Positions 24,141-60,742 are shown, numbered from the stretch's first letter. The stretch: DNA of 64,000 bases from Candidatus Delongbacteria bacterium (GCA_963663545.1 OY760505.1:320001-384000); one strand, 5' to 3'. Notes: a model not told the origin generated them from the sequence alone. Translations and numbers: made by a program.

Positions 24141-24225
24141 GATCTCTCCTCCTTGCACTCTCTCGCAACTAAAGGGAAAGCGCGGCCGCCGCACGAAGCG
24201 GCGACCGCATCAAGTATCACCTCAG

Positions 24226-27066: not shown

Positions 27067-27360
27067 GCTGTTCTCCAAATCATCTCTTGTGTTGCTGTGG
27101 TGGCTGTGCTACCACCTCTCGCGGGACAGGATAGTACAGATTCCGGCGTGGCGCAACAGAAATCTGTTCTTATTCAAATTCTCACACACTCTGCCAAAGC
27201 GTACCTTTCAAAACCTGTACGTCATGAATTCTGCTATGTGATCTGTTCCATCTTGCAGACTATCCAATTGCCCCCTTCATTACCTTCAGCTCGAGTACAG
27301 CGCGTTGGTCGCGGTGACCGAACATGAATATCCATCTTTTCCGCTGCACAATGAAGCAGC

Positions 27361-41914: not shown

Positions 41915-41924
41915 ACCGCGCCCC

Positions 41925-42914
41925 CTACGCGACTTGGATAGTGTCCAGGATACGACGCAGCACGTCGTCCGCCTTCAGTTCCTCGGCCTCGGCCTCGTAG
42001 CTGAGTCCGATGCGGTGACGCATCACGGGCAGCGCCACCTGCTTGACGTCGTCGGGTGTCACAAAACCGCGACGACGCAGGAAGGCCATCGCGCGAGCGG
42101 CGCGGGCCAGATAAATTGTAGCACGCGGACTGGCACCGTACTCCAGCAGCGGGGCTACATCCTTCAGGCCGTAGCGTTCGGGCTCGCGAGTGCAGAAGAC
42201 CAGATCGAGGATGTAGTCTTCGACCTTCTGCTCCAGCAGAATCTGCTGAGTCAGCTCGCGGGCGGCGATGATCTTCGCCGGATCACAAACCGCGCTCACG
42301 GCGGCGGCAAAGGCGCCCGTGTTACGGCGCAGAATCTCGCGTTCCTCGTCGCGTTCGGGGTAGTCGATGAGCACTTTCAGCATGAAGCGGTCCACCTGGG
42401 CCTCGGGCAGCGGGTACGTGCCTTCTTGCTCCAGGGGGTTCTGGGTGGCCATGACCAGGAAGGGCTGCGGCAGCGGCATGGTTTCACCGCCGATGCTCAC
42501 CTGGCGCTCCTGCATGGCTTCCAAAAGCGCGCTTTGCACCTTGGCCGGGCTGCGGTTGATCTCGTCGGCCAGCACCAGATTGGCGAAGACCGGTCCTTTG
42601 CGCGTGTGGAAATCGCCGGTGCGCTGATCGTAAATCTGCGTTCCCACCAGGTCGGCGGGCAGCAGGTCGGGGGTAAACTGGATTCGCGCAAAGCTCGTGT
42701 CGATGGCCTTGGAGAGCGTGGCGATGGCCGTGGTTTTGGCCAGGCCGGGAACGCCTTCCAGCAGAATGTGGCCGTCCGCCAGCAGCCCCAGCAGCAGGCC
42801 TTCGAACATGCGGCGCTGCCCCACCAGCACCTTGCGCACTTCCTGATCCAGCTCCGTCAGAAAGCCCGAGGCTTCCTCTACGCGACGTGAAAGTTCCATG
42901 GCATCCAGTTGCAT
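41925..42914 (-). CDS. moxR: MoxR family AAA+ ATPase
   Basis: GVPGLAKT, RIQFTPDLLPAD, DEINR, ATQNPLEQEGTYPLPEAQVDRF, GASPR. Confidence 0.95.
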   Translation of the reverse strand: MQLDAMELSRRVEEASGFLTELDQEVRKVLVGQRRMFEGLLLGLLADGHILLEGVPGLAKTTAIATLSKAIDTSFARIQFTPDLLPADLVGTQIYDQRTGDFHTRKGPVFANLVLADEINRSPAKVQSALLEAMQERQVSIGGETMPLPQPFLVMATQNPLEQEGTYPLPEAQVDRFMLKVLIDYPERDEEREILRRNTGAFAAAVSAVCDPAKIIAARELTQQILLEQKVEDYILDLVFCTREPERYGLKDVAPLLEYGASPRATIYLARAARAMAFLRRRGFVTPDDVKQVALPVMRHRIGLSYEAEAEELKADDVLRRILDTIQVA

Positions 42915-43913: not shown

Positions 43914-45128
43914 TCAAAACACCGTGCGGGCGGCGCGGAAACCCACGCTGCCGGACGTGTACGTCGGGTAGTTGTCGATGTGGGGCGCACACCGAACGTA
44001 CGCGGCATCGTTGTACCAGCCGCCACCCCGAAGCACACGGGTGGAGCCGCCTGTAATTCCGTATGGGTCAGATTGAGTGGAGCTGCTGTAGCTCCCATAC
44101 CAATCACCGCACCACTCCCAGACATTGCCCGCCAGGTCGTAGAAACCACGACCCGTCGCAGGATAACTGCCCACAGGGGTGGACCAGCCCACACAGTAGT
44201 TGTAGTTCAACCGCTCGCAGGTCGGCAACTCACTACCCCAGGGGTACTCTCTCTCATCGTCCCACTGGGCGGCGTACTCCCACTCCGCCTCCGTGGGTAG
44301 GCGGTAGCCCTGGGCGAGATAGGGATCATGGCTGGCGCTTTGATTCCAGTTGCCCTGGTAGAATGCTGGCAGACCTTCCATCAGACTGCGCCAGTCGCAG
44401 TAGCAGGCGGCACCGCACCAGCTGACTTCGATCGCCGGGTGATCGGCCGGGTCGTAGCCGTCCGGGTAGGCAAAGCCGGGTCCCCAGGTGCCATTGTTGT
44501 ACGTACGCGCCACCAGGTAGAACTGCTGGGTGCCCGTGTTAAAGGCGATCTCGCAGTAGTTGGTGTCATCCAGATCGAACAGCTCTACCCCGTAGGCCTG
44601 CACGCTGCTGCTGCTGGCGCTCACCAGGCCCTGGCCGAGCGCCCACTGCAGGGCGTCCATGTACTCCGCGTTGGTCACTTCGTGGGCGTCTAGGTAGAAG
44701 TCGTGGGTCAGGTGTACCGTGTGTTCGGGTGTGATTACACCAGCCTGCCCCATCATGAAGCTGCCGGCGGGAACGAGCACCATGTCCTCCGGAGCCATTG
44801 CTTCCGCATCAACACGCACCACCGCATTCTCGTGATACACACTGCCCAGCCAGGCCTGCAGGTTGATGCTGGCGAAGTGTTCTCCGACGAGCATCTCGCC
44901 GAAGTCGCCCCCAAGGTACGGGTCGGGAACGGCCGTGAAGCTCACGCCTCCGTCCAGGGAGAGCAGCAGGCTGATGTTCGCGTCCTGGTCCGCCAGCCGG
45001 TAGTGCACCTGCAGCCAGCCGGGCGTGTTGCTGTCCTGGTAAAAACTTACCTCAGACACCGTCTGCGCCGCCACGAAACCTGCCAGCAGCAGCGTCCACA
45101 GCAGGGCGATCATTGTACTCCTGTTCAT
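43914..45128 (-). CDS. FGE-sulfatase (C-type lectin fold) protein 1, N-terminal Ig/FN3-like domain type I
   Basis: Signal peptide, VPAGSFMMG, HEVTN, YRLPTEAEWEYAA, DLAGNVWEW, RVLRGG, GFR. Confidence 0.9.
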   Translation of the reverse strand: MNRSTMIALLWTLLLAGFVAAQTVSEVSFYQDSNTPGWLQVHYRLADQDANISLLLSLDGGVSFTAVPDPYLGGDFGEMLVGEHFASINLQAWLGSVYHENAVVRVDAEAMAPEDMVLVPAGSFMMGQAGVITPEHTVHLTHDFYLDAHEVTNAEYMDALQWALGQGLVSASSSSVQAYGVELFDLDDTNYCEIAFNTGTQQFYLVARTYNNGTWGPGFAYPDGYDPADHPAIEVSWCGAACYCDWRSLMEGLPAFYQGNWNQSASHDPYLAQGYRLPTEAEWEYAAQWDDEREYPWGSELPTCERLNYNYCVGWSTPVGSYPATGRGFYDLAGNVWEWCGDWYGSYSSSTQSDPYGITGGSTRVLRGGGWYNDAAYVRCAPHIDNYPTYTSGSVGFRAARTVF

Positions 45129-45137
45129 CTTCCCCCC

Positions 45138-45812
45138 CTACTTCAGCAAAGTGATTTTGTGCTGGGCGACACAATCACCCGCCTGCAGACGTACGATGTA
45201 GATGCCGCTGGCCAGCGCGCTTCCGATAAAGAGCGCCTGGTGCTCGCCGCTGTTCTGCAGGCCGTGATACAAGTCCGCCACCCTCTGTCCACGCAGGTTG
45301 TAAACGCAAAGGGAAGTCTCCTCCGTCTGCGCCAGCACATAGTGGATCACCGTGCCGGGGTTGAAGGGATTGGGGTGTGCGCCCAGCAGCGCAAAACTGG
45401 CTGGCTGCTCATCGGCGGAAGCAACGGCCTCTTCGATCACCTCGAACTCCGTCGACCAGAGCTCGCCTACATTGCCGCAGGCGTCCTGTACGTGAAAGTG
45501 AAACTGGTAGAAGCCCAGCTCCAGCTCGCAGGGCCAGTCGAAGTTGGCGCCGTAGCCCAGGGTCGTGTGCATGGGAACGCTGAGGCCAGCGCCCTCGGCA
45601 GTAATCGTGACCAGCGGCGCTTGCGCGCTCTGATCCGTCACACTGTATTCGACATAGATATCGGTGCCTTGGACGATCTGCGCGTCCAGCACGCTGTCCA
45701 GCGAAACCTGCGGCGCGACGGTGTCAATGACGCCGGGTGCGCTGTCGGCATAGCTGGCAAAAAGGGACGGGCAAGCGAGAAGGCTCGCCAGCACCAGAGT
45801 GCGGTAGTACAT
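45138..45812 (-). CDS. Small secreted Ig-domain + T9SS-type CTD protein (adaptor 1)
   Basis: Signal peptide, SYADSAPGVIDTVAP, Ig domain ending DACGN..STEFEV, AHPNPFNP...KITLLK. Confidence 0.85.
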   Translation of the reverse strand: MYYRTLVLASLLACPSLFASYADSAPGVIDTVAPQVSLDSVLDAQIVQGTDIYVEYSVTDQSAQAPLVTITAEGAGLSVPMHTTLGYGANFDWPCELELGFYQFHFHVQDACGNVGELWSTEFEVIEEAVASADEQPASFALLGAHPNPFNPGTVIHYVLAQTEETSLCVYNLRGQRVADLYHGLQNSGEHQALFIGSALASGIYIVRLQAGDCVAQHKITLLK

Positions 45813-45906
45813 ACTCTCTCCTCGAACCTGGGGTGAATCCCTGGCACACGGTGTTGTGCAGTGCTTTGTTGCTCCTGGGAATGGATGATTCTGCTATAAC
45901 TGTCCG

Positions 45907-45922
45907 AGCAAGCCGTATGCCA
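45907..45922 (-). promoter_or_regulatory. Sigma-54 promoter, module 1
   Basis: TGGCATACGGCTTGCT. Confidence 0.7.
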
Positions 45923-46161
45923 ACGGAGCATTATCGTTTACGGGCGCTAAGTGTTTGTTCCTTGCTTTAATATTTCCTGGGTGTGTGGGCGTGGAGCGCG
46001 CGCTGGTGCCGGATCTGGTACAATCTCCCCGACAGTCCAGACACAACAGCGCAGCTGTAGCCGATGCCCGGGCAACCATCGCAGCTCCCACAGAGCGCAA
46101 CGGCAAAGGCTCGGCCAGAAGTTGTTGCTTCCATCAGGCGTGCGCGACTGCCGGACAGAGG

Positions 46162-46191
46162 CAAGCGGCCCGTCGGCTGACGGGTCGCTTG
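46162..46191. terminator. Hairpin after FGE paralog 2
   Basis: caagcggcccgtc-ggct-gacgggtcgcttg. Confidence 0.6.
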
Positions 46192-46229
46192 ATTTTTCTT
46201 GCGGGCCATGCCCGGCATGTGATACAAGA

Positions 46230-47468
46230 TCAGGGATTGGCGGTACGGCAGACGCGGAAGCCCACGTGGCCGCTCGTGCGCGACGGGGAGTAGTGGCCGT
46301 CGCGATACGCACACCGGACGTACTCGGCAGCGTGGTTCCAGCTGCCACCCCGAATCACGCGGTAGGAGCTGCTCGATATTCCGTATGGATTCGACTGTGC
46401 CGAACTGCTATAGTTGCCATACCAATCACCGCACCACTCCCCGACATTGCCCGCCAGGTCATAAAACCCGCGGCCAGATGGCGGATAGCTGCCTACGGGC
46501 GAGGTCCAGCCCACGCAGTAGCTGCTGCCGTTGTAGTAGTTCAGCAACGCGCAGTCGGGTGGTTCATTACCCCAGGGATAGCTGCGTTCGTCGTTCCACT
46601 GTGCCGCGTACTCCCACTCGGCCTCCGTGGGCAGGCGATAGCCCTGCGCCGTGTATGGATCATGGCTGGCCGACTGATTCCAGTTGCCCTGGTAGAATGC
46701 CGGCAGACCCTCCATCAAACTGCGCCAGTCGCAATAGCAGGCTGCCCCGTACCAGCTCACTTCCTTCACCGGGTGATCGGCCGGGTCATAGCCGCCGGGG
46801 TAGGCAAAGCCAGGACCCGAGAAGCCGCTGGTGTACGAGCGTGCCACCAGATAGAACTGCTGGGTATTGGTGTTGAAGCCGATCTCGCAAAAGCTCGTGG
46901 CATACAGGTCAAGCAGCTCTACCCCGTAGGCCTGCACGCTGCTGCTGGTTACGCTAACCAGCCCCTGGTTGAACGCCCACTGCATCGCGGCCAGATACTC
47001 GGCGTTGGTCACTTCATGGGTATCCAGGTAAAAATCTTGCGTCAGCGTGACTGTGTGTTCGGGTGTGGCCACATCAGAATCAGACTCGCCCATCACGAAG
47101 CTTCCGGCGGGAACGAGGATCATGCTCACCAGAGCCGCCGCTTCCGCATCAACACGCACCACCGCATTCTCGTGATACACGCTGCCCAGCCAGGCCTGCA
47201 GGTTGATGCTGGCGAAGTGTTCGCCGACGAGCATCTCGCCGAAGTCGCCCCCGAGGTACTGGTCGGGAACGGCCGTGAAGCTCACGCCGCCGTCCAGGGA
47301 GAGCAGCAGGCTGATATTCGCATCCTGCTCTGCCAGCGTGTAATGCACCGTCACTAGCCCGCTGCCGTCCTGCGCCTGAGCAAAGCTCACATCTGACACC
47401 GTTTGCGCCGCAGCAAAGCCTGCCAGCAATAGCGTCCACAGCAGGGCGATCATTGTATTTCGATTCAT
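46230..47468 (-). CDS. FGE-sulfatase protein 2 (type I N-domain)
   Basis: Same motifs as paralog 1. Confidence 0.9.
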   Translation of the reverse strand: MNRNTMIALLWTLLLAGFAAAQTVSDVSFAQAQDGSGLVTVHYTLAEQDANISLLLSLDGGVSFTAVPDQYLGGDFGEMLVGEHFASINLQAWLGSVYHENAVVRVDAEAAALVSMILVPAGSFVMGESDSDVATPEHTVTLTQDFYLDTHEVTNAEYLAAMQWAFNQGLVSVTSSSVQAYGVELLDLYATSFCEIGFNTNTQQFYLVARSYTSGFSGPGFAYPGGYDPADHPVKEVSWYGAACYCDWRSLMEGLPAFYQGNWNQSASHDPYTAQGYRLPTEAEWEYAAQWNDERSYPWGNEPPDCALLNYYNGSSYCVGWTSPVGSYPPSGRGFYDLAGNVGEWCGDWYGNYSSSAQSNPYGISSSSYRVIRGGSWNHAAEYVRCAYRDGHYSPSRTSGHVGFRVCRTANP

Positions 47469-47477
47469 GCTTTCCCC

Positions 47478-48152
47478 CTACTTCAGCAAAGTGATTTTCT
47501 GCTGGGCCACGCGCTCGCCCGCCTGCAGACGTACGATGTAGATGCCGCTGGCCAGCGCGCTGCCGTCAAAGAGCGCCTGGTGCTCGCCGCTGTCCTGCAG
47601 GCCGTGGTACAATTCCGCCACACGCTGACCGCGCAGGTTGTAGACCTCGAGCGAAGCCTCGGCGGTCTGCGCCAGTGCGTAGCGAATCACCGTGCCGGGG
47701 TTGAAGGGGTTGGGATGCGCGCCCAACAGCGCAAAGCTGGCCGGCTGCTCATCGGCGGAAGCAACGGCCTCTTCGATCACCTCGAACTCCGTCGACCAGA
47801 GCTCGCCTACATTGCCGCAGGCGTCCTGTACGTGAAAGTGAAACTGGTAGATGCCCAGCTCTAGCTCACAGGGCCAGTTGAAGTTGGCGCCGTAGCCCAG
47901 GGTTGTGTGCATGGGAACGCTGAGGCCAGCGCCCTCGGCTGTAATTGTGACCAGCGGCGCTTGCGCGCTCTGGTCTGTCACGCTGTACTCAACGTAGACG
48001 TCGGTGCCGTAGACGATCTGCGCGTCCAGCACGCTGTCCAGCGAAACCTGTGGCGCAACGGTGTCAATGACGCCGGGTGCGCTGTCGGCATAGCTGGCAA
48101 AAAGGGACGGGCAGGCGAGAAGGCTCGCCAGCACCAAAGTGCGGTAGTACAT
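47478..48152 (-). CDS. Adaptor 2 (Ig + T9SS-type CTD)
   Basis: Near-identical to adaptor 1; GAGGAGAG RBS before MYYR. Confidence 0.85.
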   Translation of the reverse strand: MYYRTLVLASLLACPSLFASYADSAPGVIDTVAPQVSLDSVLDAQIVYGTDVYVEYSVTDQSAQAPLVTITAEGAGLSVPMHTTLGYGANFNWPCELELGIYQFHFHVQDACGNVGELWSTEFEVIEEAVASADEQPASFALLGAHPNPFNPGTVIRYALAQTAEASLEVYNLRGQRVAELYHGLQDSGEHQALFDGSALASGIYIVRLQAGERVAQQKITLLK

Positions 48153-48249
48153 ACTCTCTCCTCGAATCCGTGCGAATCCCTCACAGTGGCGCTGCGGCAG
48201 GATTCTGTGTTTGCTGAAAACGAAATCTGATTTTGCTGCTACGCTTGAT

Positions 48250-48265
48250 TGCAAGCTTCATACCA
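48250..48265 (-). promoter_or_regulatory. Sigma-54 promoter, module 2
   Basis: TGGTATGAAGCTTGCA. Confidence 0.7.
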
Positions 48266-48465
48266 ATTCCTGCAATGCGTGCCGGAATTGGCAACTGTTA
48301 TAATTCCAAGTAGATGCTTCGCTAATTCGGTGTTGCAGAAATGCAAGTGTGCCGGATACGCGACAGAAGTACAGAACAGCGCGAACACTATTACGCCTGC
48401 GGCGGGAATGGGACACGGCTTTGGAGGGTGGACCGATTCAGGTGCCTTGTCTGTGCACACAAAGA

Positions 48466-48493
48466 AAGCGACCCGCCGACTAACGGGTCGCTT
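48466..48493 (-). terminator. Hairpin/terminator after FGE paralog 3
   Basis: Minus strand aagcgacccg-ttagtcgg-cgggtcgctt followed by tcttt. Confidence 0.6.
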
Positions 48494-48532
48494 GATTTTC
48501 CTTGCGGGCCATGCCCGGCATGTGATACAAGA

Positions 48533-49753
48533 TCAGGGATTGGCCGTACGGCAGACGCGGAAGCCCACTTGGTAGCTCATTCCATTCGGGCTGTTGCCAT
48601 TGCGGTACGCACACCGGACGTACGTGGCAGAGCTGCTCCAGGCTCCACCTCGACGCACGCGAGCATTAATGCCATCAATTCCGTATGGATTGGATTGAGG
48701 GGAGCTGCTGTAGCTTCCAAACCAATCTCCGCACCACTCATAGAGATTGCCCGCCATGTCGCAGAAGCCAAGGTCTGTAGCCGGATAACTGCCCACCGGG
48801 GTGGTCCAGGCCACACAGTTGTTGTAGTTCAACCGCTCGCAGATCGGCAAGTCATTGCCCCAGGGGTATTCTCTATTATCGTCCCACTGGGCGGCGTACT
48901 CCCACTCTGCCTCCGTGGGTAGGCGGTAGCCCAGGGCCAGATAAGGATCATGGCTCAGGTCTTGATTCCAGTTGCCCTGGTAGAAGGCGGGTAGGCCATC
49001 CATCAGGCTGCGCCAGTCGCAATAGCAGGCGGCGCCGAACCAGCTGACTTCCTTCACCGGGTGATTAGCCGGGTCGTAGCCGTCGGGATAGGCAACGCCG
49101 GGCCCCCATAAGCCACCGCTCGTGCGCGCAACCAGATAGAACTGCTGGATGCTGGCATCGAAGGCAATCTCGCAGTAGTCGGTAGCGTTCAGGTCCAGCA
49201 GCTGCTTACCATAGGCCTGCACGCTGCTGCTGCTGGCGGTCACCAGGCCCTGGTTGTACGCCCACTGCAGCGCGGCCAGGTACTCGGCATTGGTCACCTC
49301 GCAGCGTCCCAGGTAGAAGTCGTTCGTTAGTGTGACCTGATGCTCAGGTGATGAAAAATATATGCCCTCCTGCCCCATCATGTAGCTGCCGGCGGGAACG
49401 AGGATCATGCTCACCAGAGCCGCCGCTTCCGCATCAACACGCACCACCGCATTCTCGTGATACACGCTGCCCAGCCAGGCCTGCAGGTTGATGCTGGCGA
49501 AGTGTTCTCCGACGAGCATCTCGCCGAAGTCGCCCCCAAGGTACTGGTCGGGAACGGCCGTGAAGCTCACGCCTCCGTCCAGGGAGAGCAGCAGGCTGAT
49601 GTTCGCGTCCTGGTCCGCCAGCCGGTAGTGCACCTGTAGCCAGCCGGGTGTGGTACTGTCCTGATAAAAGCCCACTTCCGACACGGTTTGCGCCATCGTG
49701 ACACACGCCATCAGCAGTCCGAGCAGCAGGGCGATGCAGGTAGTCTTCTTCAT
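48533..49753 (-). CDS. FGE-sulfatase protein 3 (type I N-domain)
   Basis: Same motifs as paralog 1. Confidence 0.9.
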   Translation of the reverse strand: MKKTTCIALLLGLLMACVTMAQTVSEVGFYQDSTTPGWLQVHYRLADQDANISLLLSLDGGVSFTAVPDQYLGGDFGEMLVGEHFASINLQAWLGSVYHENAVVRVDAEAAALVSMILVPAGSYMMGQEGIYFSSPEHQVTLTNDFYLGRCEVTNAEYLAALQWAYNQGLVTASSSSVQAYGKQLLDLNATDYCEIAFDASIQQFYLVARTSGGLWGPGVAYPDGYDPANHPVKEVSWFGAACYCDWRSLMDGLPAFYQGNWNQDLSHDPYLALGYRLPTEAEWEYAAQWDDNREYPWGNDLPICERLNYNNCVAWTTPVGSYPATDLGFCDMAGNLYEWCGDWFGSYSSSPQSNPYGIDGINARVRRGGAWSSSATYVRCAYRNGNSPNGMSYQVGFRVCRTANP

Positions 49754-49766
49754 TTCTCTTCCCCCC

Positions 49767-50441
49767 CTACTTCAGCAAAGTGATTTTGTGCTGGGCCACG
49801 CGCTCGCCCGCCTGCAGCCGTACGATGTAGATGCCGCTGGCCAGCGCGCTGCCGTCGAAAAAGACCTGGTGCTCGCCGCTGTCCTGCAGGCCGTGATACA
49901 AGTCCGCCACCCGCTGTCCACGCAGGTTGTAGACGCAGAGGGAAGTCTCCTCCGTCTGCGCCAGCGCATAGTGGATTACCGTGCCTGGGTTGAAGGGGTT
50001 GGGATGTGCTCCCAACAGCGCAAAACTGGCTGGCTGCTCATCGGCGGAAGCAACGGCCTCTTCGATCACCTCGAACTCTGTCGACCACGTGTCACAGAAG
50101 TTGCCGCAGGCGTCCTGTACGTGAAAGTGAAACTGGTAAATGCCTAGCTCCAGCTCGCAGGGCCAGTTGAAGTTGGCGCCGTAGCCCAGGGTTGTGTGCA
50201 TGGGAACGCTGAGGCCAGCGCCCTCGGCAGTAATTGTGACCAGCGGCGCTTGCGCGCTCTGATCCGTCACGCTGTACTCAACGTAGACGTCGGTGCCTTG
50301 GACGAGCTGCGCGTCCAGCACGCTGTCCAGCGAAACCTGCGGTGCGACGGTGTCAATGACGCCGGGTGCGCTGTCGGCATAGCTGGCAAAAAGGGACGGG
50401 CAGGCGAGAAGGCAAGCAAGCATCAACGTGCGAACAGTCAT
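49767..50441 (-). CDS. Adaptor 3 (Ig + T9SS-type CTD)
   Basis: Near-identical to adaptor 1; GAGGAG RBS before MTVR. Confidence 0.85.
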   Translation of the reverse strand: MTVRTLMLACLLACPSLFASYADSAPGVIDTVAPQVSLDSVLDAQLVQGTDVYVEYSVTDQSAQAPLVTITAEGAGLSVPMHTTLGYGANFNWPCELELGIYQFHFHVQDACGNFCDTWSTEFEVIEEAVASADEQPASFALLGAHPNPFNPGTVIHYALAQTEETSLCVYNLRGQRVADLYHGLQDSGEHQVFFDGSALASGIYIVRLQAGERVAQHKITLLK

Positions 50442-50534
50442 GATCACTCCTCGATTCCGCACAGTCTTACACCTAGCTGTAGGCTGCGGTGAATGCTGTT
50501 GTAGGTTATAGATCGATTTTGCTGAAGCGCAGAG

Positions 50535-50550
50535 CGCAAATGATGTGCCA
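50535..50550 (-). promoter_or_regulatory. Sigma-54 promoter, module 3
   Basis: TGGCACATCATTTGCG. Confidence 0.7.
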
Positions 50551-50799
50551 TTTTCGTCACACACCTTCGCGTTTGAACAATTGTTCAAATTTCAAGCAGA
50601 TAGCAACCAGAGAATTGAGGAAGAAAAGGCCTCGTGTGCCGGATTTTCTACAGAATTAGGCTCAGACTGAACAATATTTCGCGAACCTTTCCATTGCTTG
50701 GTGGATATCGAGCCAGAATGCCGAAGCTCCATCCATGTACGCACAACGGGCACTTCTACTCGTGCACAGAGCAAGGCGACCCGCCAGCTGACGGGTCGC

Positions 50800-51003
50800 A
50801 GAAGGTTCGAATTCCAAAACATGAAGGCAGCCAACTGTATCCGGTCACGGCTGGAAGCCCCTCCCTCAGGCTTAGCCAGTCGCAATAACAGGCGGCGCCG
50901 TGCCAGCGGACTTCCTTCACCGGGTGAGAGGTGCTTCCAGAGCGCGGGTGAGCCCCGAAGCCAACAGCAGAAGCAGAGCAAACAGTGTTGTGAGCTTCCT
51001 CAT
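50800..51003 (-). pseudogene. Internally deleted FGE-sulfatase paralog remnant
   Basis: RBS + MRKLTTLFALLLLLASGLTRALEAP joined out of frame to HPVKEVRWHGAACYCDWLSLREGLPA, then the family hairpin at 50776-50799. Confidence 0.8.
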
Positions 51004-51017
51004 GGTCTCCTCTCAAG

Positions 51018-52220
51018 TCAGGGGTTGACAGTTCGGGCGGCGCGAAAACCCACTCCGCTGCTCGCGTACAAGGGGTCGCTGTTGCGTCGATGCGCACACT
51101 GGACGTTTGTGTCATCGCCGGTCCAGCAGCCACCCCGAATCACTCGAGAGGGGCTACCAGCAATTCCGTATGGATTGGTTTGGTTTGAGCTGCTATAGCT
51201 GCCATACCCATCACCGCACCACTCCCGGATGTTCCCCGCGAGATCTGAAAAACCACGTCCCGTCAGCGGATAGTTGCCAACCGGGGAGGTCCAGCCTATG
51301 CAGTAGCTGCCGCCGTCGTGGTAATTCAGCAATGCGCAGGTGGGGGATTCATTTCCCCAGGGGTAGCTACGTTCATCGTCCCACTGCGCCGCATATTCCC
51401 ATTCAGCCTCCGTCGGCAAACGGTAGCCCTGCGCCAGATAGGGATCGTGGCTGGCGCTTTGATCCCAGTTGCCCTGATAGAACGCGGGCAAGCCCTCGCG
51501 CAGGCTACGCCAGTCGCAGTAACACGCGGCCCCGTACCAGCTGACTTCCTTCACCGGGTGATCGGCCGGGTCGTAGCCGCCGGGGTAGGCGAATCCAGGC
51601 CCCCAGCTACCACTGTTGTATGAGCGCGCCACCAGATAGAACTGCTGTGTACTCGTGTTGAATGCGATCTCGCAGTAGTTAGTGGCATCCAGATTGAGCA
51701 GCTCCACACCGTAGGCCTGTACGCTGCTGCTGTCAGCAGTCACCAGGTCCTGCCCTAGAGCCCACTGCAAGGCTTCCATGTACTGCTGGTTGGTCACCTC
51801 ATGTGCGTCCAGGTAGAAGTCGTAGGTCAGGTGTACCGTGTGCTCCGGCGTGGCCACACCAGCCTGTCCCATCGTGAAGCTACCGGCGGGTACGAACACC
51901 ATGTCGCCTAACTCGCCGATAGCTACAACATTGAAGCTGCCGAATCGAGACGGCTGAAACAGCGAGTCCCACCCCGTAGGCAGGGCGAATTGGCAGCTAG
52001 TTGTATCGGTCCAGGCCAGCAGCGAGTCGGGGCCCGTCCACTGGGTTCTCCCCCGAACCTGATAGGAGACCGCCCCTGCTACGGAAATCCAGTCCAGCCT
52101 GACGCAAGTAGTGTCGCCGTCACACGCGGCAGTGATGGAGACCTGCGGAGCGTCCAGCGCAAAAACAGCCACCAGCGGGATCAGCCACACAGCAGCCATG
52201 ACAAGCACATTCCTCATCAT
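51018..52220 (-). CDS. FGE-sulfatase protein 4, N-terminal FN3-like domain type II
   Basis: AGGAGAGA RBS, signal peptide, LDAPQVSI..LDW..V.GA.SY, FGE motifs. Confidence 0.88.
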   Translation of the reverse strand: MMRNVLVMAAVWLIPLVAVFALDAPQVSITAACDGDTTCVRLDWISVAGAVSYQVRGRTQWTGPDSLLAWTDTTSCQFALPTGWDSLFQPSRFGSFNVVAIGELGDMVFVPAGSFTMGQAGVATPEHTVHLTYDFYLDAHEVTNQQYMEALQWALGQDLVTADSSSVQAYGVELLNLDATNYCEIAFNTSTQQFYLVARSYNSGSWGPGFAYPGGYDPADHPVKEVSWYGAACYCDWRSLREGLPAFYQGNWDQSASHDPYLAQGYRLPTEAEWEYAAQWDDERSYPWGNESPTCALLNYHDGGSYCIGWTSPVGNYPLTGRGFSDLAGNIREWCGDGYGSYSSSNQTNPYGIAGSPSRVIRGGCWTGDDTNVQCAHRRNSDPLYASSGVGFRAARTVNP

Positions 52221-52899
52221 TCTCTCCTGTTTCTTTCGTCGTCGTGTTTTGATCTCTGCTCGGGTTTCTGCTCTGCGCCCTACCACTCGCCAGCGATCCA
52301 TCCGCCTACGGCCCTATGCGCAACGCGTGTGCGGCATGGCAGCAGATGTACTCAGCGGGTACGGCTGTTGGTCGGCAACTCAACGTGACTGGTAATCAAT
52401 GCCAGGTAGAACAGCATGGCCGTCCGCGAAAGTGTCCACGGGCGTGTCACCCCATGTACTCCCGCGACTCCCCGTCTTGCTGCAAAACGGGACGACTCTG
52501 TGATTTCGTTGCTATTTCTGGTCTTGCTGCAATACTGTTGCGCAATCGGCAGACCAGTTTGCCTCCGCTGCGTGCTTGAGCGTAATGACACTATTTTCAG
52601 TCAGATATCAGCTGCGGTCAGACCGGCTTTTCCTGTACATGCCGGATATTCACCAAATTGGGCGTCGGCATGAACACCTAGGAGCAGCGTTCTCCAGCAA
52701 TCACACTTTCAGTCTGGTTGCTCATGGGACAAGCAACCCGTCAGCTAGCAAGTCGAAGTGGGAACTCTATCGTACCAGGCAGCGAGGCTGTCCGCCGTGA
52801 CACACGCTCACTCGCGTCCTGTCTACCCTGGACATCTTCAATACGCGAGAGTTGGCGCAGCAAACTCCAACGGACCGGCGATTGTGTCACGCGGTAACA

Positions 52900-54039
52900 C
52901 TAATCGACGGTACGCACGCAGCGAAAACCGCAGTCGCTGTACGCGCTCGTAGGCGTTTCGTTGTCGCGGTACGCACAGCGGGCGTAGCTGGCATTGTCGT
53001 TCCAATCTCCCCCGCGCAGCGCACGAGCCGTGCCGCTCGCATTTCCGTATGGATTAGTCTGAGTCGAGCTGCTGTAGTCCCCATACCAATCGCCGCACCA
53101 CTCCCAGACATTGCCCGCCAGATCGTAAAACCCACGTCCCGTCGCCGGATAACTGCCCACCGGGGTGGTCCAACCCACACAGTTGTTGTAGTTCTGCCGT
53201 TCGCAGGAAGGGGATTCATTGCCCCAGGGGTAGCTACGCTCATCGTCCCATTGCGCGGCGTACTCCCACTCCGCTTCCGTCGGTAGACGATAGCCCTGTG
53301 CCATGTAGGGATCGTGGCTCGCGTCAATATTCCAGTTGCCCTGGTAGAAGGCGGGCAAGCCTTCCCTCAGGCTGCGCCAATCGCAGTAACACGCGGCTCC
53401 GTACCAAGTGACCTCGATCACCGGGTGTTGCTCGCTCCCCGCATCCACGCTGAACTGGGACCCGGAGTAGGAGATCTCGCAATCAATATCATCCAGGTCC
53501 AGCAGCTCCAGTCCGTAAGCCTGCACGCTGCTGCTGCTGGCAGTGACCAATCCCTGGTCGTACGCCCACTGCAGGGCCTCTACGTATTCCTGGTTGCTCA
53601 CCTCGTACTGTCCCAGGTAGAAGTCGTGGCTCAGGGTCACGGTGTGTTCCGGCTCGGCCACGCCCACCTGTCCCATGACGAACTCACCGGCAGGCACGAG
53701 CACCAGCGGCATCTCCTCCACCGTCGTCACCGCGCGCACGGAAAAGAGCCGCGCCACGTTGGGGCGTACGCGACCGACCTGCAGCATGGGCACGCGCAGA
53801 CTGTACTCGCAGTTGGTGGTCGTGGTCAGCAGCGAGTCCGTCTGCCAGGCGGCGTTGCGCGGGTCGCGGTGGTAGAGCTCGTAATACTCAGCGCCGCTGA
53901 CGCTGGGCCAGGAAAGCTGCACCTGCACGCAATCCAGATCCGGGTTGTACTGGGTGCTCAGGCTGAGCTGGGGCGTCTCCAGAGCGTGCGCGAGCCCGGC
54001 GGTCAGCAGCAGGGCAAACAAGGTGATACGTCGCAGCAT
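52900..54039 (-). CDS. FGE-sulfatase protein 5 (type II N-domain)
   Basis: LETPQLSL..LSWPSVSGA..Y, FGE motifs. Confidence 0.88.
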   Translation of the reverse strand: MLRRITLFALLLTAGLAHALETPQLSLSTQYNPDLDCVQVQLSWPSVSGAEYYELYHRDPRNAAWQTDSLLTTTTNCEYSLRVPMLQVGRVRPNVARLFSVRAVTTVEEMPLVLVPAGEFVMGQVGVAEPEHTVTLSHDFYLGQYEVSNQEYVEALQWAYDQGLVTASSSSVQAYGLELLDLDDIDCEISYSGSQFSVDAGSEQHPVIEVTWYGAACYCDWRSLREGLPAFYQGNWNIDASHDPYMAQGYRLPTEAEWEYAAQWDDERSYPWGNESPSCERQNYNNCVGWTTPVGSYPATGRGFYDLAGNVWEWCGDWYGDYSSSTQTNPYGNASGTARALRGGDWNDNASYARCAYRDNETPTSAYSDCGFRCVRTVD

Positions 54040-54056
54040 GATGGATCCTTTTGAGT

Positions 54057-55262
54057 TCAGGGGTTGGCGGTGCGACAGACGCGGAAGCCCATGCGGCTGA
54101 ACGCGACCGACGGGGCAGCGAAATGGCGACTTGCGCAGAGCAGGTACGACGCGTTGTTACCCCAGCTGCTGTCCCGGCTCACACGGAGGGAGCCGCTTGG
54201 GGGCCCCGTCGGATTGCTCACGCTATCGCTGCTGTAGCTGCCAAACCAATCGCCGCACCATTCGGAGACATTACCGCCCAGGTCGTAGAAACCAAGGCCC
54301 GTCGCTGGATAGCCGCCTACCGGAGTAGTCCACCCCACGCAGAAGCTACTGCCGAGAAAGCAGTTCACCACCTCACAACTGGGGGACTGATCGCCCCAAG
54401 GGTAAGTACGCTCGTCGTTGAACTGGGCCGCATACTCCCACTCAGCCTCTGTGGGCAGACGGTAGCCCTGAGCCAGATAGGGATCGTGGCTGGCGCTTTG
54501 ATTCCAGTTGCCCTGGTAGAAAGCTGGCAAGCCCTCCCTCATACTGCGCCAGTCGCAGTAGCAAGCGGCCCCGTACCAGCTGACGTCCTTCACCGGGTGA
54601 TGGGCAGGGTCGTAGCCCTCGGGGTAGGCAAAACCTGGGCCGAAGGTGCCAGTGTTGGTGGTGCGTGGTACTAGAGTGAACTGTTGAAGGCTTGAGTCGA
54701 AGGCAATCTCGCAGGACTCGACATCACCAATGGCGAGCAGCCCCGCGCCATCAGCCTCGACTCTCGTGTCGGTCACCGTTACCAGGCCCTGATCGTAGGC
54801 CCACTGCAGGGCCTCCATGTACTCCTGGTTGGTCACCTCGTAGCGTCCCAAGTAAAAGTCTTGCGTCAGGGTCGCCGTGTGTTCCGGCTCGGACACGCCC
54901 ACCTGCCCCATGAGGAAGCTGCCCGCAGGTACGAGCACCAGCGGGGACAGCACCGCCCGCACGGAAAAAAGCCGCGCCACGTTGGGGCGCACGCGGCCGA
55001 TCTGAATCATGGGCACGCGCAGGCTATACGCGCAGTTGGTGGTCGTGGTCAGCAGCGAGTCCGTCTGCCAGGCAGCGTTGCGCGGGTCGCGGTAGTAGAC
55101 TTCGTAAACCTCGGCGCCGCTGACGCTGGGCCAGGAAAGCTGCACCTGCACACAATCCAGTTCAGGGTTGTACTGGGTGCTCAGGCTGAGCTGGGGTGCT
55201 TCCAGCGCGTGCGCGAGCCCGGCGGCCAGCAGCAGGGCAAACATTGTGATGCGGTGCGTCAT
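54057..55262 (-). CDS. FGE-sulfatase protein 6 (type II N-domain)
   Basis: N-domain near-identical to protein 5; FGE motifs. Confidence 0.88.
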   Translation of the reverse strand: MTHRITMFALLLAAGLAHALEAPQLSLSTQYNPELDCVQVQLSWPSVSGAEVYEVYYRDPRNAAWQTDSLLTTTTNCAYSLRVPMIQIGRVRPNVARLFSVRAVLSPLVLVPAGSFLMGQVGVSEPEHTATLTQDFYLGRYEVTNQEYMEALQWAYDQGLVTVTDTRVEADGAGLLAIGDVESCEIAFDSSLQQFTLVPRTTNTGTFGPGFAYPEGYDPAHHPVKDVSWYGAACYCDWRSMREGLPAFYQGNWNQSASHDPYLAQGYRLPTEAEWEYAAQFNDERTYPWGDQSPSCEVVNCFLGSSFCVGWTTPVGGYPATGLGFYDLGGNVSEWCGDWFGSYSSDSVSNPTGPPSGSLRVSRDSSWGNNASYLLCASRHFAAPSVAFSRMGFRVCRTANP

Positions 55263-55395
55263 GGTGGATCCTTGGCCGTGGAACACCTCTGGACACGAGT
55301 GAGCGCGCCACGTAGCTACCACCGCGCGCTGGCAATCGGACGATGTCGTGCGTGCAGGTGCATTCGTGGATTCTGCTCCATTTTTCTTGTTGTGC

Positions 55396-55411
55396 TGCAA
55401 GCTTCGCACCA
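55396..55411 (-). promoter_or_regulatory. Sigma-54 promoter for FGE 6/5
   Basis: TGGTGCGAAGCTTGCA. Confidence 0.65.
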
Positions 55412-55578
55412 AAGCTGCAACGAGCGCGGCCTTGCTCGTATGTTCTATAATTTCAATTCATGTCACTTCAGCCTGGAACCTGTCTGCCCGCCGGATTCTC
55501 GACATAGATAACAGGAATAGAACAGTATGAATCCAACGCAGACATCGGCAGCCTGGGGCGCGAGACGCGGGGTCCCTT

Positions 55579-55775
55579 CCCCTCCCAATCGGTATCCGAC
55601 TCGCCCCGAGTCGGCGGGATCGCTATCGGTATCGGTATCGTTCCCCCTTCCCCCCCCAATCGGTATCATTCTTCCTTCTCCTGTTCCTTCGCGTAGATTC
55701 CAGCAACAAGCAGGTTTCCGAATCCGACTCCGAAATCGACCTGCCCCCGTGACGAGCTGGGTCGGCACCGATCGA
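55579..55775. repeat. Hexamer (tcggta) repeat element, third copy
   Basis: cccctcccaatcggtatc, ccgactcgccccgagtcgg, gctatcggtatcggtatcg, tccgaatccgactccgaaatcgac. Confidence 0.6.
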
Positions 55776-55845
55776 GATGAGGAAGTGGATGAGACCACGC
55801 ATCCCGTGATCTTGAGAGCGAGCCCTGTTCGCTTCGATCCTCCCG

Positions 55846-57090
55846 CTACGGGGCCACCGTCCGACAGATACGGAAGCCGAGGTCCTCGCTCGCGTTCCCT
55901 GGCAGGGCATTGTAGCGAAAAGCGCAACTCACCGTACCTGCATGGGAGTACGACGAATGGCATCCTCCGCGAGCCACCCGTGCACCCCCCTGACTTGGGC
56001 CTGCGGGGTTGATCGCGTAGTTCGCATTGGGATAGGCGGCAAACCAGTCATTGCACCACTCCCAGACGTTGCCTGCTAAATCATGCAAGCCCAGCGCCGC
56101 GTCGCCGGCGGGATAGCTGCCTACGGGCGCAGTCCAGCGCGCGCAGTTACCGTAGTTTGCCTGCAGGCAAGGTGTGGGTACTGTGTCACCCCATGGATAG
56201 AGTCGCCTATCGTTGTATTGCGCTGCGTATTCCCATTCGGCCTCCGTCGGCAGGCGGTACCCTTCGGCAGCGTATGGATTACCGGGGTCCGGTATTTGTG
56301 ACCATTGGCCATTGTAATAGGGAGTGAGTCCCTCCAACTGACTGCGCCAGTCGCAATAGCAGGCAGCACCGTACCAGGTCACGTGCATGACGGGGTGCGT
56401 GGCAGGATCGTACCCGTTCGGATAAGCCGCCCCCGGACCTCGGCCCTGCGCGCTGAAAGTACCCTCATGAAGGACAAACTGCGGGGAATCGTAGCGGATC
56501 TCGCAATTATCCACCCCTGTGTACCATACCAAAAGGATCTGCCCATACTGCACAACCCTCCCACCACTGGCATTTGGTATCACCAGCCCCTGCTCCAGCG
56601 CCCACTGCAAAGCCTCCAGGTATTCCTCGTTGGTCACTTCGCTACGCCCCAGATAGAAGTATTCCGTCAAGTACACGGCGTGCACGGGCTCGGCCACACC
56701 GGTACGCCCCATGACAAAATAGGCGGCCGGCGGCATCAGCACCATGCCCTCGGGAGCCGTGTGTTCTGCCAACACGCGCACCACGGCATTCGTGCAGTAC
56801 AGACTGCCCAGCCAGGCTTGTATGTTGATGGCAGCGGAGCCATTCCCCGCAGCCACCTCGCCCACATCGCCGCTGGTGTACTCTGCTGGTACGAGCGTGA
56901 AAGAGCTTCCGCCATCCAGCGAGAGCTCAAGGCTGACGTTGGCGTTCAAATCCGGCATCCAGTAGTGCACTTGTAGCCAGCCGGGTGCATTTGCATCCTG
57001 GGAGAAGCTCACGGACATCACGGTCTGCGCGGCGGCAATCCCCGCCAGCTGGAGCGTCCATAGCAGAGCGATCGCGGTAGTTCGGTTCAT
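55846..57090 (-). CDS. FGE-sulfatase protein 7 (divergent type I N-domain)
   Basis: QTVMSVSFSQD..PGWLQVHY..SLDGG, FGE motifs. Confidence 0.88.
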   Translation of the reverse strand: MNRTTAIALLWTLQLAGIAAAQTVMSVSFSQDANAPGWLQVHYWMPDLNANVSLELSLDGGSSFTLVPAEYTSGDVGEVAAGNGSAAINIQAWLGSLYCTNAVVRVLAEHTAPEGMVLMPPAAYFVMGRTGVAEPVHAVYLTEYFYLGRSEVTNEEYLEALQWALEQGLVIPNASGGRVVQYGQILLVWYTGVDNCEIRYDSPQFVLHEGTFSAQGRGPGAAYPNGYDPATHPVMHVTWYGAACYCDWRSQLEGLTPYYNGQWSQIPDPGNPYAAEGYRLPTEAEWEYAAQYNDRRLYPWGDTVPTPCLQANYGNCARWTAPVGSYPAGDAALGLHDLAGNVWEWCNDWFAAYPNANYAINPAGPSQGGARVARGGCHSSYSHAGTVSCAFRYNALPGNASEDLGFRICRTVAP

Positions 57091-57099
57091 GCTTCCCCC

Positions 57100-57774
57100 C
57101 TACTTCAGCAAGGTGATTTTGTGCTGGGCGACGCAATCACCCGCTTGCAGACGCACAATGTAGATGCCGCTGGCCAGCGCGCTTCCGTCAAAGAGCGCCT
57201 GGTGCTCGCCGCTGTCCTGCAGGCCGTGAACCAAATCCGCTACCCGCTGACCGCGCAGGTTGTAGACGCAGAGAGAAGCCTCCTCAGTCTGCGCCAGCGA
57301 ATAGTAGATCACCGTGCCGGGATTGAAAGGGTTTGGATGTGCGCCTGAAAGGGCAAAGCTGGCCGGTTGGTAGTCCGCAGAGGCAACGTCCTCTCCGATG
57401 ACTTCGAACTCCGTCGACCAGAGCTCGCCTGCATTGCCGCAGGCGTCCTGTACGTGGAAGTGAAACTGGTAGATACCCAGCTCCAGCTCACAGGGCCAGT
57501 TGAAGTTGGCGCCGTAGCCCATGGTTGTGTGCACGGGAACGCTGAGGCCAGCGCCCTCGGCAGTAATCGTGACCAGCGGCGCCTGAGCGCTCTGATCTGA
57601 CACGCTGTACTCGACGTACACCTGTGTGCCAACCACGATCTGCGCGTCCAGCACGCTGACCATCGTAATCTGTGGCGCGACGGTGTCAATGACGCCGGGC
57701 GCGCTGTCGGCGTAACTGGCAAACAGTGCCGGACAAGCAAACAGGGCCGTCAGCACGAAAGTGCGGCAGTGCAT
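57100..57774 (-). CDS. Adaptor 4 (Ig + T9SS-type CTD)
   Basis: SYADSAPGVIDTVAP; highly similar to adaptors 1-3. Confidence 0.85.
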   Translation of the reverse strand: MHCRTFVLTALFACPALFASYADSAPGVIDTVAPQITMVSVLDAQIVVGTQVYVEYSVSDQSAQAPLVTITAEGAGLSVPVHTTMGYGANFNWPCELELGIYQFHFHVQDACGNAGELWSTEFEVIGEDVASADYQPASFALSGAHPNPFNPGTVIYYSLAQTEEASLCVYNLRGQRVADLVHGLQDSGEHQALFDGSALASGIYIVRLQAGDCVAQHKITLLK

Positions 57775-57871
57775 ACTCTCTCCTCAAATGCGGATGTCCT
57801 CCTGCGAGGCCTGCTGCGGGAAGATCAATTGCTTGCTGATGATGGAATCGGATTCTGCCGCGCACAGCACA

Positions 57872-58030: not shown

Positions 58031-59252
58031 CTACTCGGCCGCTTTAGCACACGGAAGCCCAGATAGTCCTTTGCGTAGGGTGGAGAATAGCTGACCCGAT
58101 AGGCGCATTTCACGTAGGACGCAGTGGCCTTCCCAGGTACCACCCCGGAAGAAGCGGGCAGAGCCGGTGCTTGCACCGAGGGGGTCGGACGCGGCACTCG
58201 AGGGATAAACCCCATAACAGTCGCCACACCACTCAGCGATGTTACCCGCTATATCATGCAAGCCCAAGGTGCTGCCCCCACAGGATAGCTGCCCACGGGT
58301 GCTGTCCAGCCCACACACCTGGCCATGTCTGCATGGACGCACTCCACGGGTAAGTCATTGCCCCATGGATAGGTACGTTCGTTCTCTTACCGCACCGCGT
58401 ACTCCCACTCCGCTTCTGTTGGCAGTCGGTAGCCATCGGCCAGGTAGGGGTTGTGGCTGGTTGTCTGATCCCAGACTCCATAATAGAAGGGCGACAAGCC
58501 TTCTCTTTGGCTGCGCCAATCGCAGTAGCAGGCGGAACCGTACCAAGTGACATACTTCGCAGGATGTGATGCGGGATCATAACCTTCTGGATAGGCTGCC
58601 CCTGGGCCGGAGATCCCATTGACGTAGGTTCCTGCTTGTAGGAAAAACAGCTGCGAGCTGCTATTGAATTGAATCTCGCACCGATCAGCAGCAGTTCATC
58701 GATGCCCAGCAGGTCCTGTCCGTACTGGCACACGTACTCCCCATCTTCAGAAATCGTCAACAATCCCTGAACCCAGGCCCATTGCACAGCTGCCAGGTAC
58801 TCCTGATTGCTCACCTCATACTGGCCAATCAGGAAGTCATGGGTCAGGGTCACTTAGTGTTCCGGCGGAGCCACGCCATTCTGCCCCATCATGCAGCCGC
58901 CAGCAGGGATGAGAACCATGGCTGCTTCATCGATCGCCGCTCGCACGTGGAAGGTGCGCGCCAGGTTCGAGCGCACACGGCCAGGCTGGCGCCAGCGCAG
59001 GTGCAATTCAAAGCCACAGTCCGTGATTGTAGCCAGCAGGAAATCCTCCACCCAGGTAGAACTACGCGGATTGCGGTAGTAGACTTGATACTGCGTGGCA
59101 CCAGTGACGCAGGGCCACTGAAGCTGGACAAGCGCGCTATCCGTCCCCTCGATGCACTGCGCAGCAACACTTATCTGCGGAGCTTCCAGAGCACAGGCGA
59201 CTCCTGCTGTCAGCAGCAGGAGCACCCCAACCAGTTGCTTCAAGCGTGTCAT
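58031..59252 (-). pseudogene. FGE-sulfatase paralog 8, inactivated
   Basis: In-frame TAA at 58854-58856 (PEH*VTLTH); remaining FGE motifs split over several frames. Confidence 0.85.
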
Positions 59253-60651: not shown

Positions 60652-60742
60652 ATCCAGTCCTTTGTTTGTTGACCTCTCGTGTTGCCGGGCGCTTGGAGCC
60701 ACAGAAAGTGAACACGCCCTCTCCTGCAATGAAAAATGATTC

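Follow-up and report, generated by a model that had tools for sequence, protein, structure and literature searches.

A duplicated two-gene unit in a Candidatus Delongbacteria genome that may supply a type IX secretion sorting domain in trans

We analyzed a stretch of 64,000 nucleotides from a Candidatus Delongbacteria bacterium (GCA_963663545.1 OY760505.1:320001-384000, referred to here as the window), which lies within a single 3.72-Mb contig, and focused on a repeated pair of genes between positions 43914 and 57774. Every gene in this region is on the minus strand, and four times a gene for a protein of 224 amino acids (the adaptor, A1 to A4) is followed by a gene for a protein of 404 to 414 amino acids (the partner, P1 to P4). 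The pairs consist of A1 (45138..45812) and P1 (404 amino acids, 43914..45128), A2 (47478..48152) and P2 (412 amino acids, 46230..47468), A3 (49767..50441) and P3 (406 amino acids, 48533..49753), and A4 (57100..57774) and P4 (414 amino acids, 55846..57090), the lengths of A2 and A3 being counted from ATG. Consistent with the initial annotation, which had reported four such closely spaced pairs, the adaptor stop codon and the partner ATG are separated by 9, 9, 13, and 9 nucleotides in pairs 1 to 4, with a spacer that reads TAG-GGGGG(G)AAG..-ATG. No terminator was found in the gaps between adaptor and partner genes of the window pairs. A terminator-like hairpin with a T-run follows P1 (43841..43871, minus strand), and a similar one follows P3 (48466-48493, minus strand); the hairpin after P2 (46162-46191, minus strand) has no T-run on the coding strand, and no terminator-like hairpin was found 3' of P4. 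In the explanation that we consider the best, and to which we give an even chance, each window pair is an operon of two genes, one for a carrier and one for its cargo.

The adaptors closely resemble each other, A2, A3, and A4 being 93, 92, and 87% identical to A1 at the protein level. In A1, a signal peptide (residues 1-19) is followed by a predicted donor peptide, SYADSAPGVIDTVAP (residues 20-34), an Ig domain (residues ~35-127), a linker, and a type A C-terminal sorting domain (CTD; residues ~141-224) of a type IX secretion system (T9SS). As had been noticed earlier, the peptide is invariant in all four window adaptors and stands immediately after the signal peptide; its codons lie at 45711..45755 in A1 and at 48051-48095, 50340-50384, and 57673-57717 in the others (minus strand). 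Signal peptides, in adaptors and partners alike, were assigned by reading the sequence. Both window adaptors that were scanned, A1 and A4, exceeded the cut-offs of the CTD families TIGR04183 (37.2 and 36.2 bits; cut-off, 23) and PF18962 (27.4 and 29.9 bits; cut-off, 27). In a model of the adaptor monomer, an Ig-like domain spans residues 35-126 and the CTD residues 154-222, and the N-terminal peptide showed no confident packing on the adaptor's own Ig domain, residues 1-28 having a per-residue confidence (pLDDT) below 50. The CTD (model residues 138-223) superposed on solved T9SS CTDs, namely, 8qb1_A (Z 9.0, root mean square deviation [rmsd] 2.2, 77 residues aligned), 8glk_D (Z 8.7, rmsd 2.4, 75 aligned), and 6za2_B (Z 8.7), and structure comparison placed the Ig part near CBM, FN3-like, and PKD modules (Z ~10).

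The partners are built differently. All four carry a formylglycine-generating enzyme (FGE)-sulfatase domain (PF03781, 159-180 bits; cut-off, 23.3), and none of the four gave a CTD match (PF18962, TIGR04183) at E≤0.01, the proteins ending directly after the FGE domain; the earlier description of the partners as proteins with a signal peptide but no CTD therefore holds, with the signal peptides read as stated above. In P1, the signal peptide is followed by an FN3-like domain, which we call the type I N-domain (residues 22-111, codons 44796..45065, minus strand), and by the FGE-sulfatase-fold head (residues 113-404). The other three partners share both parts, with the N-domain equivalents encoded at 47136-47405, 49421-49690, and 56758-57027. 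This N-domain of ~90 residues is 85-96% identical among P1, P2, and P3, and that of P4 is 65% identical to that of P1; the FGE fold of P4 is 51% identical to P1's. Four further FGE paralogs in the window, at 51018-52301, 52900-54039, and 54057-55262 (all minus strand) and at 59419-60729, have a type II FN3-like N-domain instead, and no adaptor. The claim that only proteins with the type I N-domain have an adaptor was thus upheld in the window (four of four type I genes versus none of the four type II genes) and also genome-wide, where all five type I N-domains are accompanied by an adaptor.

We predicted the complex of the mature adaptor (residues 20-224, 7-row alignment) and the partner N-domain (residues 21-115, 11-row alignment) in one job. 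The complex score (ipSAE) was 0.79, and the best of three controls scored 0.00; calibration of this score placed 116 of 157 solved complexes at or above its mark, along with 2 of 215 mismatched pairs, figures that are only roughly valid here because our own alignments were used. The runs agreed in at least 100% of the contacts, with a partner pLDDT of ≥90. On the adaptor side, the predicted interface comprises residues 20-33, 61, and 109-115, and on the partner side residues 21-29, 31-37, 39, 41, 43, 50, 57, 60-61, 90-91, and 94-109. The tightest pairs are adaptor residues 22-26 with partner residues 103-106 and adaptor residues 27-30 with partner residues 98-102, so that the modeled peptide and the N-domain's last strand (98-106) are antiparallel, and adaptor residues 22-24 also touch the A strand at residues 27-29. 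In addition, a "D-x-x-G-N" loop of the adaptor Ig domain (residues 109-115) packs on the N-domain in the model, as consecutive domains do in a tandem Ig array. The model speaks for binding but is no demonstration of it. Contact between the adaptor peptide and the partner N-domain, which the initial annotation had proposed, is therefore a prediction, and we regard binding through the N-terminal peptide as probable.

The form of this contact appears to differ from that first proposed. In the initial annotation, the N-domain was read as six strands of an incomplete Ig fold, with the adaptor peptide as its missing G strand; according to this strict donor-strand complementation, the N-domain would be unable to fold, or unstable, by itself and would be completed as in chaperone-usher or type V pilins. 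The place of the modeled peptide, antiparallel to the last strand and parallel to the A strand, which it touches, is indeed the canonical place of a G strand, and it corresponds to the tail of the preceding domain's last strand in tandem Ig arrays. However, an AlphaFold2 (AF2) model of P1 alone, made from a 15-row alignment and poor in the C-terminal half of the FGE domain, gave the N-domain a pLDDT of 77-88 and seven strand segments rather than six (24-31, 38-45, 50-57, 72-74, 77-79, 82-89, and 103-110), the last strand included. Its ~90 residues are the full length of an FN3 domain, and it aligns with complete FN3 domains, albeit with middling Z values and with the reservations that models can fold incomplete pilin domains too and do not speak to stability in the absence of the peptide. 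The superpositions were those of P1 residues 20-111 on an FN3 domain within a longer chain, 8jmw_A (Z 7.7, rmsd 2.6, 82 aligned), and of the N-domain on the complete FN3 domains 3mpc_B (Z 7.1, rmsd 2.6, 79 of 96 aligned) and 7jgu_A (Z 6.7, rmsd 2.7, 76 of 90 aligned); in these model comparisons, the middling values (6.7-7.7) show a common fold, not kinship. Distant relatives of the N-domain also occur without any adaptor. Strict complementation is thus improbable in our judgment, and the missing-strand claim was not supported by the monomer model or the fold comparison. Since the N-domain modeled alone aligns with whole FN3 domains, the peptide looks instead like an eighth strand added to the fold at its A/G seam.

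Sequence conservation, considered apart from the model, is consistent with the predicted contact. The second half of the peptide (VIDTVAP, or "V-I-D-T-x-A-P") is the motif found generically at the junctions of tandem Ig repeats: among 647 repeat instances from giant proteins, the junction reads V-[VIL]-D-T-T-[AP]-P, with D present in 343 and P in 355 of the instances aligned at these positions (345 and 357, respectively). The first half, "SYADSAPG" (profile positions 20-27), was aligned in only 25-133 of the 647 instances, and because it is so seldom aligned in generic junctions, we consider it adaptor specific. Among four diverged adaptors, A1 and three described below (A5, P0106, and the adaptor of genome G007), identity is 45% in the peptide (residues 20-33), 23% in the Ig domain, and 47% in the CTD. 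The predicted interface therefore lies on the most conserved adaptor-specific segment outside the CTD, about twice as conserved as the Ig domain. On the partner side, the predicted interface positions of the linked, diverged N-domains are 47% identical versus 33% elsewhere, a difference reached by 72 of 2000 permutations, and no such difference was seen in the unlinked relatives of the N-domain (44% versus 45%). As the positions are not independent, we take this sequence comparison as modest support for binding. Two other ideas about the adaptor were set aside. It is not likely to be a lipoprotein, as a signal-peptide cysteine in a lipobox-like context is found in just two of the four diverged adaptors; and a common origin of the adaptor Ig domain and the partner N-domain was not adopted, hhalign giving an indecisive probability of 64% over 39 columns.

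Outside the window, the same arrangement was found twice more. A fifth pair in this genome consists of a 220-amino-acid adaptor (A5), 42% identical to A1 (33% in its N-terminal part), that keeps "..YADSAMGVLDT..P" and the CTD, and, 10 nucleotides downstream, a gene for a CTD-less protein of 696 amino acids with a type I N-domain. This N-domain is 31-43% identical to that of P1, depending on the alignment, and the head behind it has no FGE domain; an unassigned stretch is followed there by a PKD domain and a weak PPC match. Because a diverged adaptor and N-domain are here combined with a non-FGE head, the linkage follows the N-domain, not the head. The sixth pair belongs to another genus of the same family (G007); its adaptor of 322 amino acids has a further Ig-like domain in addition to the peptide, Ig domain, and CTD, and lies 11 nucleotides upstream of a gene for a type I N-domain with an FGE head. 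The PF18962 cut-off was also exceeded by A5, by the G007 adaptor, and by P0106, a 224-amino-acid protein from a metagenome-assembled genome on a contig of 1,867 bp. Altogether, all six adaptors with a known context, five in this genome and one in another genus, sit 9-13 nucleotides upstream of a type I N-domain gene.

These further pairs also bear on an alternative, that there is no physical complex at all. The adaptor would then be an ordinary small surface protein of the T9SS and the partner an independent protein, periplasmic or exported in some other way, the two forming a duplicated, coregulated unit, and the complex score would be a false positive. The window pairs are indeed recent tandem copies (nucleotide identity of the adaptors, 76-98%), small proteins of an Ig domain plus a CTD appear common in related phyla (a lead only), and, as stated above, 2 of the 215 mismatched pairs reached the mark while our own alignments were uncalibrated. 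However, the gene order and the 9- to 13-nucleotide spacing are retained in another genus, beside a different head, and where identity has fallen to 31-43%; the segment on which the predicted interface lies is adaptor specific and the most conserved one outside the CTD; and the three controls scored 0.00. We consider the absence of a complex unlikely.

Searches for additional members indicated a narrow distribution. With the adaptor profile, 2 of 12 genomes of the phylum gave six clear places, all of them linked to a partner, plus two weak matches inside giant proteins. In these 12 genomes, the N-domain profile recovered the same six as strong matches and gave four distant matches in G004 and G006 (E 1e-7 to 1e-9); the distant genes carry FGE heads or heads read as LamG-like. 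Outside the phylum, the N-terminal part of the adaptor was not found in any of 29 genomes (41 relatives searched). An exhaustive HMMER search of 1.84 billion representatives returned 1284 matches; giant tandem-Ig proteins made up almost all of the best 150, among which the only stand-alone adaptors were those of this genome, P0106, and a copy on a 22-kb contig that is truncated. In word-index searches, the adaptor N-terminal part, the N-domain, and a four-row adaptor profile likewise found only the copies of this genome, the 22-kb-contig copy, and P0106. A metagenome scan with alignment A9 matched 169 stretches, none of them a relative. A contig scan with P0106 yielded 36 loci, all via the CTD only, and hidden Markov models of the adaptor N-terminal part and the N-domain matched none of the 36. 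In the ESM Atlas, the best score for the N-domain was 0.81, below the level of trust, and the adaptor matched only generic clusters of small Ig-plus-CTD proteins. The two-gene module is real and conserved, but rare. On the 22-kb contig, from a public assembly, two proteins (P0003 and P0007) are near-identical copies of A4 and P4 that run out of frame after ~127 and ~212 residues, respectively, reflecting either a strain with broken genes or assembly errors.

The initial annotation had contrasted a constant adaptor with a variable partner. This held in part: the adaptors are 87-93% identical to A1 and the partners (P2, P3, and P4) 77, 76, and 57% identical overall to P1, but the high identity of the P1-P3 N-domains means that a part of the partner is constant as well. 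The constancy of the adaptor appears to have more than one cause. Within the same units, synonymous divergence (dS) was 0.28-0.64 for the adaptors versus 0.49 to above 2 for the FGE heads, and in unit 4, divergence of the N-domain (dS 0.9-1.3) accompanies that of the head, whereas the adaptor has remained similar to the other adaptors. Because adaptor dS is low compared with head dS, the parts of a unit differ in history, through either gene conversion of the adaptors or exchange of the heads, and the near-identity of the adaptors would partly reflect such concerted evolution. Purifying selection is also acting on the adaptor (ratio of nonsynonymous to synonymous divergence, 0.14-0.19). The FGE head of the adaptor-free type II gene at 51018-52301 is 77% identical to the P1 head, closer than the heads of P2 and P3 (74% and 72%), and heads therefore seem to move between adaptor-linked and adaptor-free genes. 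At 58031-59252 (minus strand), a broken FGE paralog is left as three fragments in different frames, i.e., a type II N-domain (58854-59252), an FGE start (58254-58853), and an FGE end (58031-58342), and at G000:C1:3474960-3480560, a single open reading frame (ORF) of 1866 amino acids has six tandem FGE-sulfatase domains (52-57% identical to the P1 head) behind a type II-like N-domain.

As to what the heads do, their closest solved relatives by sequence are FGEs (E ~1e-20), followed by PorK (7e-17) and Treponema denticola variable protein 1 (5e-14). Aligned to solved FGEs, P1 has N and Y/gap at the positions of the two catalytic cysteines. As judged by eye, the cysteine pair (C-x4-C, as in "..LCHDSYC.." of the solved FGE 6muj) is absent in P2 and P3, and P4 retains the first cysteine only; in all, five pairs have FGE/C-type-lectin-fold heads without the FGE cysteine pair. 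Since the catalytic positions are not kept, the heads are unlikely to be formylglycine-generating enzymes, judging by their sequences. A role as the GldK/PorK ring lipoprotein was rejected, TIGR03525 scoring 75-112 bits against a cut-off of 350 and a lipoprotein signal being absent: the signal-peptide ends have no cysteine in P1, P2, and P4, and Cys17 of P3 has no preceding lipobox. We also rejected the head as an enzyme that modifies the adaptor peptide, given that a non-FGE head accompanies the adaptor and N-domain of the fifth pair and that P1 lacks the FGE cysteines.

The genome provides a T9SS for which the adaptor CTD could serve as the signal. We found SprA (SprA_N, 121 bits) and two PorU proteins (587 and 550 bits) above their cut-offs, a PorV-like protein below its cut-off (196 versus 250 bits), and ~145 ORFs with a C-terminal CTD; GldK gave no match at E≤1e-30. 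One protein of 429 amino acids (G000:C1:2934708-2935997), adjoining a second FGE gene without a CTD, is an FGE-sulfatase domain fused directly to a T9SS CTD, and FGE-fold heads are therefore T9SS cargo in this genome. Our best reading, which we put at an even balance of probability, is that of a bicistronic module of carrier and cargo, with the CTD provided in trans for piggyback export by the T9SS and display at the surface. The carrier would be an ordinary type A substrate that, after cleavage of its signal peptide, exposes a free N-terminal peptide (residues 20-33) followed by one Ig domain and the sorting domain, and the cargo would be exported by Sec with its FN3-like domain first, its variable head last, and no sorting domain. 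In the periplasm, the carrier peptide would join the FN3-like domain of the cargo as an extra β-strand, antiparallel to the last strand and beside the A strand, with the two proteins stacking like adjacent domains of a tandem Ig array. The CTD of the carrier would then take the folded heterodimer through the SprA translocon, and a PorU-type sortase would cut off the CTD and fix the carrier on the surface, so that the head is displayed. The sequence data demonstrate the anatomy of the genes, their domain content, the conserved linkage, and the presence of T9SS genes; binding and its interface are model predictions. Co-export of the partner with the adaptor, to which we give slightly less than an even chance, is something that we infer, as are the site of complex formation, the surface anchoring, and the function of the head.

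Binding might also occur without co-export. An adaptor already at the surface could capture a partner that is released otherwise, for example, in vesicles, or the partner could act in the periplasm on or with the adaptor, such as a holdase or quality-control partner ahead of T9SS transit. The same complex prediction would support this, and the adaptor-free paralogs with near-identical heads imply that heads can do without an adaptor. On the other hand, it is not evident how a soluble Sec-exported protein that has neither a lipobox nor a CTD would cross the outer membrane, the FGE head fused to a CTD points to an extracellular role, and the fact that pairs differ in the head but keep the N-domain speaks against head and adaptor being enzyme and substrate. 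We therefore think that binding without co-export is quite unlikely.

Several points nevertheless weigh against the carrier-cargo reading. Binding is derived from one prediction job with shallow alignments (7 and 11 rows), in which the N-domain, not the whole partner, was folded with the adaptor. A look-up of RNA runs for 55846-57860 listed none that contains this stretch. As the window pairs are recent duplicates, there are about three independent instances, i.e., the window set, the fifth pair, and the G007 pair. The adaptor family is very rare (2 of the 12 phylum genomes and none of the 29 outside), and the distant N-domain relatives in G004 and G006, four matches plus a tandem neighbor ORF, have no adaptor upstream; the proposed linkage of the two genes stands for every adaptor with a known context, including those of the diverged fifth pair and of the other genus, but not for every relative of the N-domain. 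Near-identical FGE heads are found on adaptor-free paralogs as well (that of 51018-52301 compared with P1), and we found no precedent for co-export of a tagless partner by the T9SS.

The proposed module can be compared with several known systems. With type A CTD cargo of the T9SS, such as gingipain RgpB, mirolase, and NucA, the adaptor has in common the Sec signal peptide, Ig-like domain, and C-terminal sorting domain, in a genome with SprA and PorU. In that cargo, the functional domain and the CTD share one polypeptide; here, the CTD is joined to no more than a peptide and one Ig domain, and the head presumed to be functional belongs to another protein, which has no CTD. As in chaperone-usher and type V pili, an N-terminal extension is predicted to lie as a strand in the seam between the A and last strands of another protein's Ig-like domain. 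However, a heterodimer rather than a polymer is predicted, with an acceptor that resembles complete FN3 domains and a donor that is a T9SS substrate; the partners have neither a lipobox cysteine nor a donor extension of their own, and a Pfam scan of the larger ORFs of the window named no chaperone, usher, fimbrial, or pilin-type family. The adaptor Ig domain and its "V-I-D-T-x-A-P" motif match the unit and junction of giant adhesins with 10-30 tandem Ig repeats (Big_13-like), but the adaptor is a single repeat, preceded at its mature N-terminus by the conserved orphan SYADSAPG extension and followed by a CTD. With the FGE-fold families (FGE, PorK/GldK, and T. denticola variable protein 1), the heads share PF03781 and, as in the treponemal family, occur as a set of variable paralogs; P1 differs in having no FGE cysteines, the GldK model stays below its cut-off, and the partner signal peptides have no lipobox cysteine. 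A functional analogy is the "hitchhiker" co-translocation by the twin-arginine translocation (Tat) system, in which a folded complex is exported on the signal of one subunit, although the membrane, machine, and signal are different and co-export is inferred in our case. In PMC9251779, this concept is that of a signal-less subunit carried by a signal-bearing partner. For the T9SS itself, PMC6247017 reports an enzyme that is abundant extracellularly despite having no CTD, for which its authors suggest vesicles, and type B CTD proteins are reported to associate with PorP-like partners (PMC9143113). The type B case is the nearest published one of a T9SS cargo that needs the product of a neighboring gene, although that cargo has its own CTD. 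No published description of a T9SS carrier for CTD-less cargo was found in the full-text literature searched, which did not include subscription journals.

At present, T9SS cargo is recognized by a CTD on the same polypeptide, and proteins without a CTD are counted as not secreted this way. If the proposed carrier-cargo module is true, a CTD acting in trans would change the prediction of T9SS secretomes and would explain some of the extracellular proteins that lack a tag, and the small, portable pair of a peptide and an FN3-like domain would offer a means of displaying proteins on the cell surface. We suggest only tentatively the wider principle that T9SS sorting domains can act in trans, with a dedicated carrier that clamps a standard FN3-like receptor and exports and anchors any head fused to it, the heads being swapped by recombination. 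Small Ig-plus-CTD proteins of unknown function in the Fibrobacterota-Chlorobiota-Bacteroidota (FCB) group could include more such carriers.

Further carriers of this kind are hinted at by three other pairs in this genome, in each of which a small gene with a CTD precedes a CTD-less gene. At G000:C1:3040523-3043318, a protein of 155 amino acids, made of a short N-terminal module and a CTD, is encoded 12 nucleotides upstream of a secreted-looking, CTD-less protein of 771 amino acids; their mature N-termini are alike by eye, with no significant similarity by BLASTP, and the two may be a second kind of pair with a CTD in trans. At G000:C1:2046774-2050688, a protein of 262 amino acids with one domain and a CTD is encoded 30 nucleotides upstream of a CTD-less protein of 1031 amino acids that repeats the same type of domain, read as lamin-tail-like from the sequence; the N-terminal regions of the two are 36% identical (E 1e-5). 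At G000:C1:1364902-1366191, a CTD protein of 248 amino acids is encoded 9 nucleotides upstream of a secreted-looking, CTD-less protein of 177 amino acids that reads as thioredoxin-like (C-x-x-C).

Other genes were noted in the rest of the window. On the coding strand, an aerotolerance-type operon (35448-42914, minus strand) lies immediately downstream of the FGE cluster and encodes a MoxR AAA ATPase, a DUF58 protein, BatA-type VWA proteins, BatD, and a TPR protein. A two-gene unit is duplicated in tandem at 15753-21276 and 21570-27078 (minus strand); its proteins of ~950 and ~875 amino acids have a T9SS CTD, with a right-handed β-helix match in three of the four. On the plus strand, adjacent genes at 5925-10106 and 10424-14611 encode two proteins of ~1394 amino acids in which a Peptidase_C25 (gingipain-family) domain is combined with an InhA-like MAM domain.

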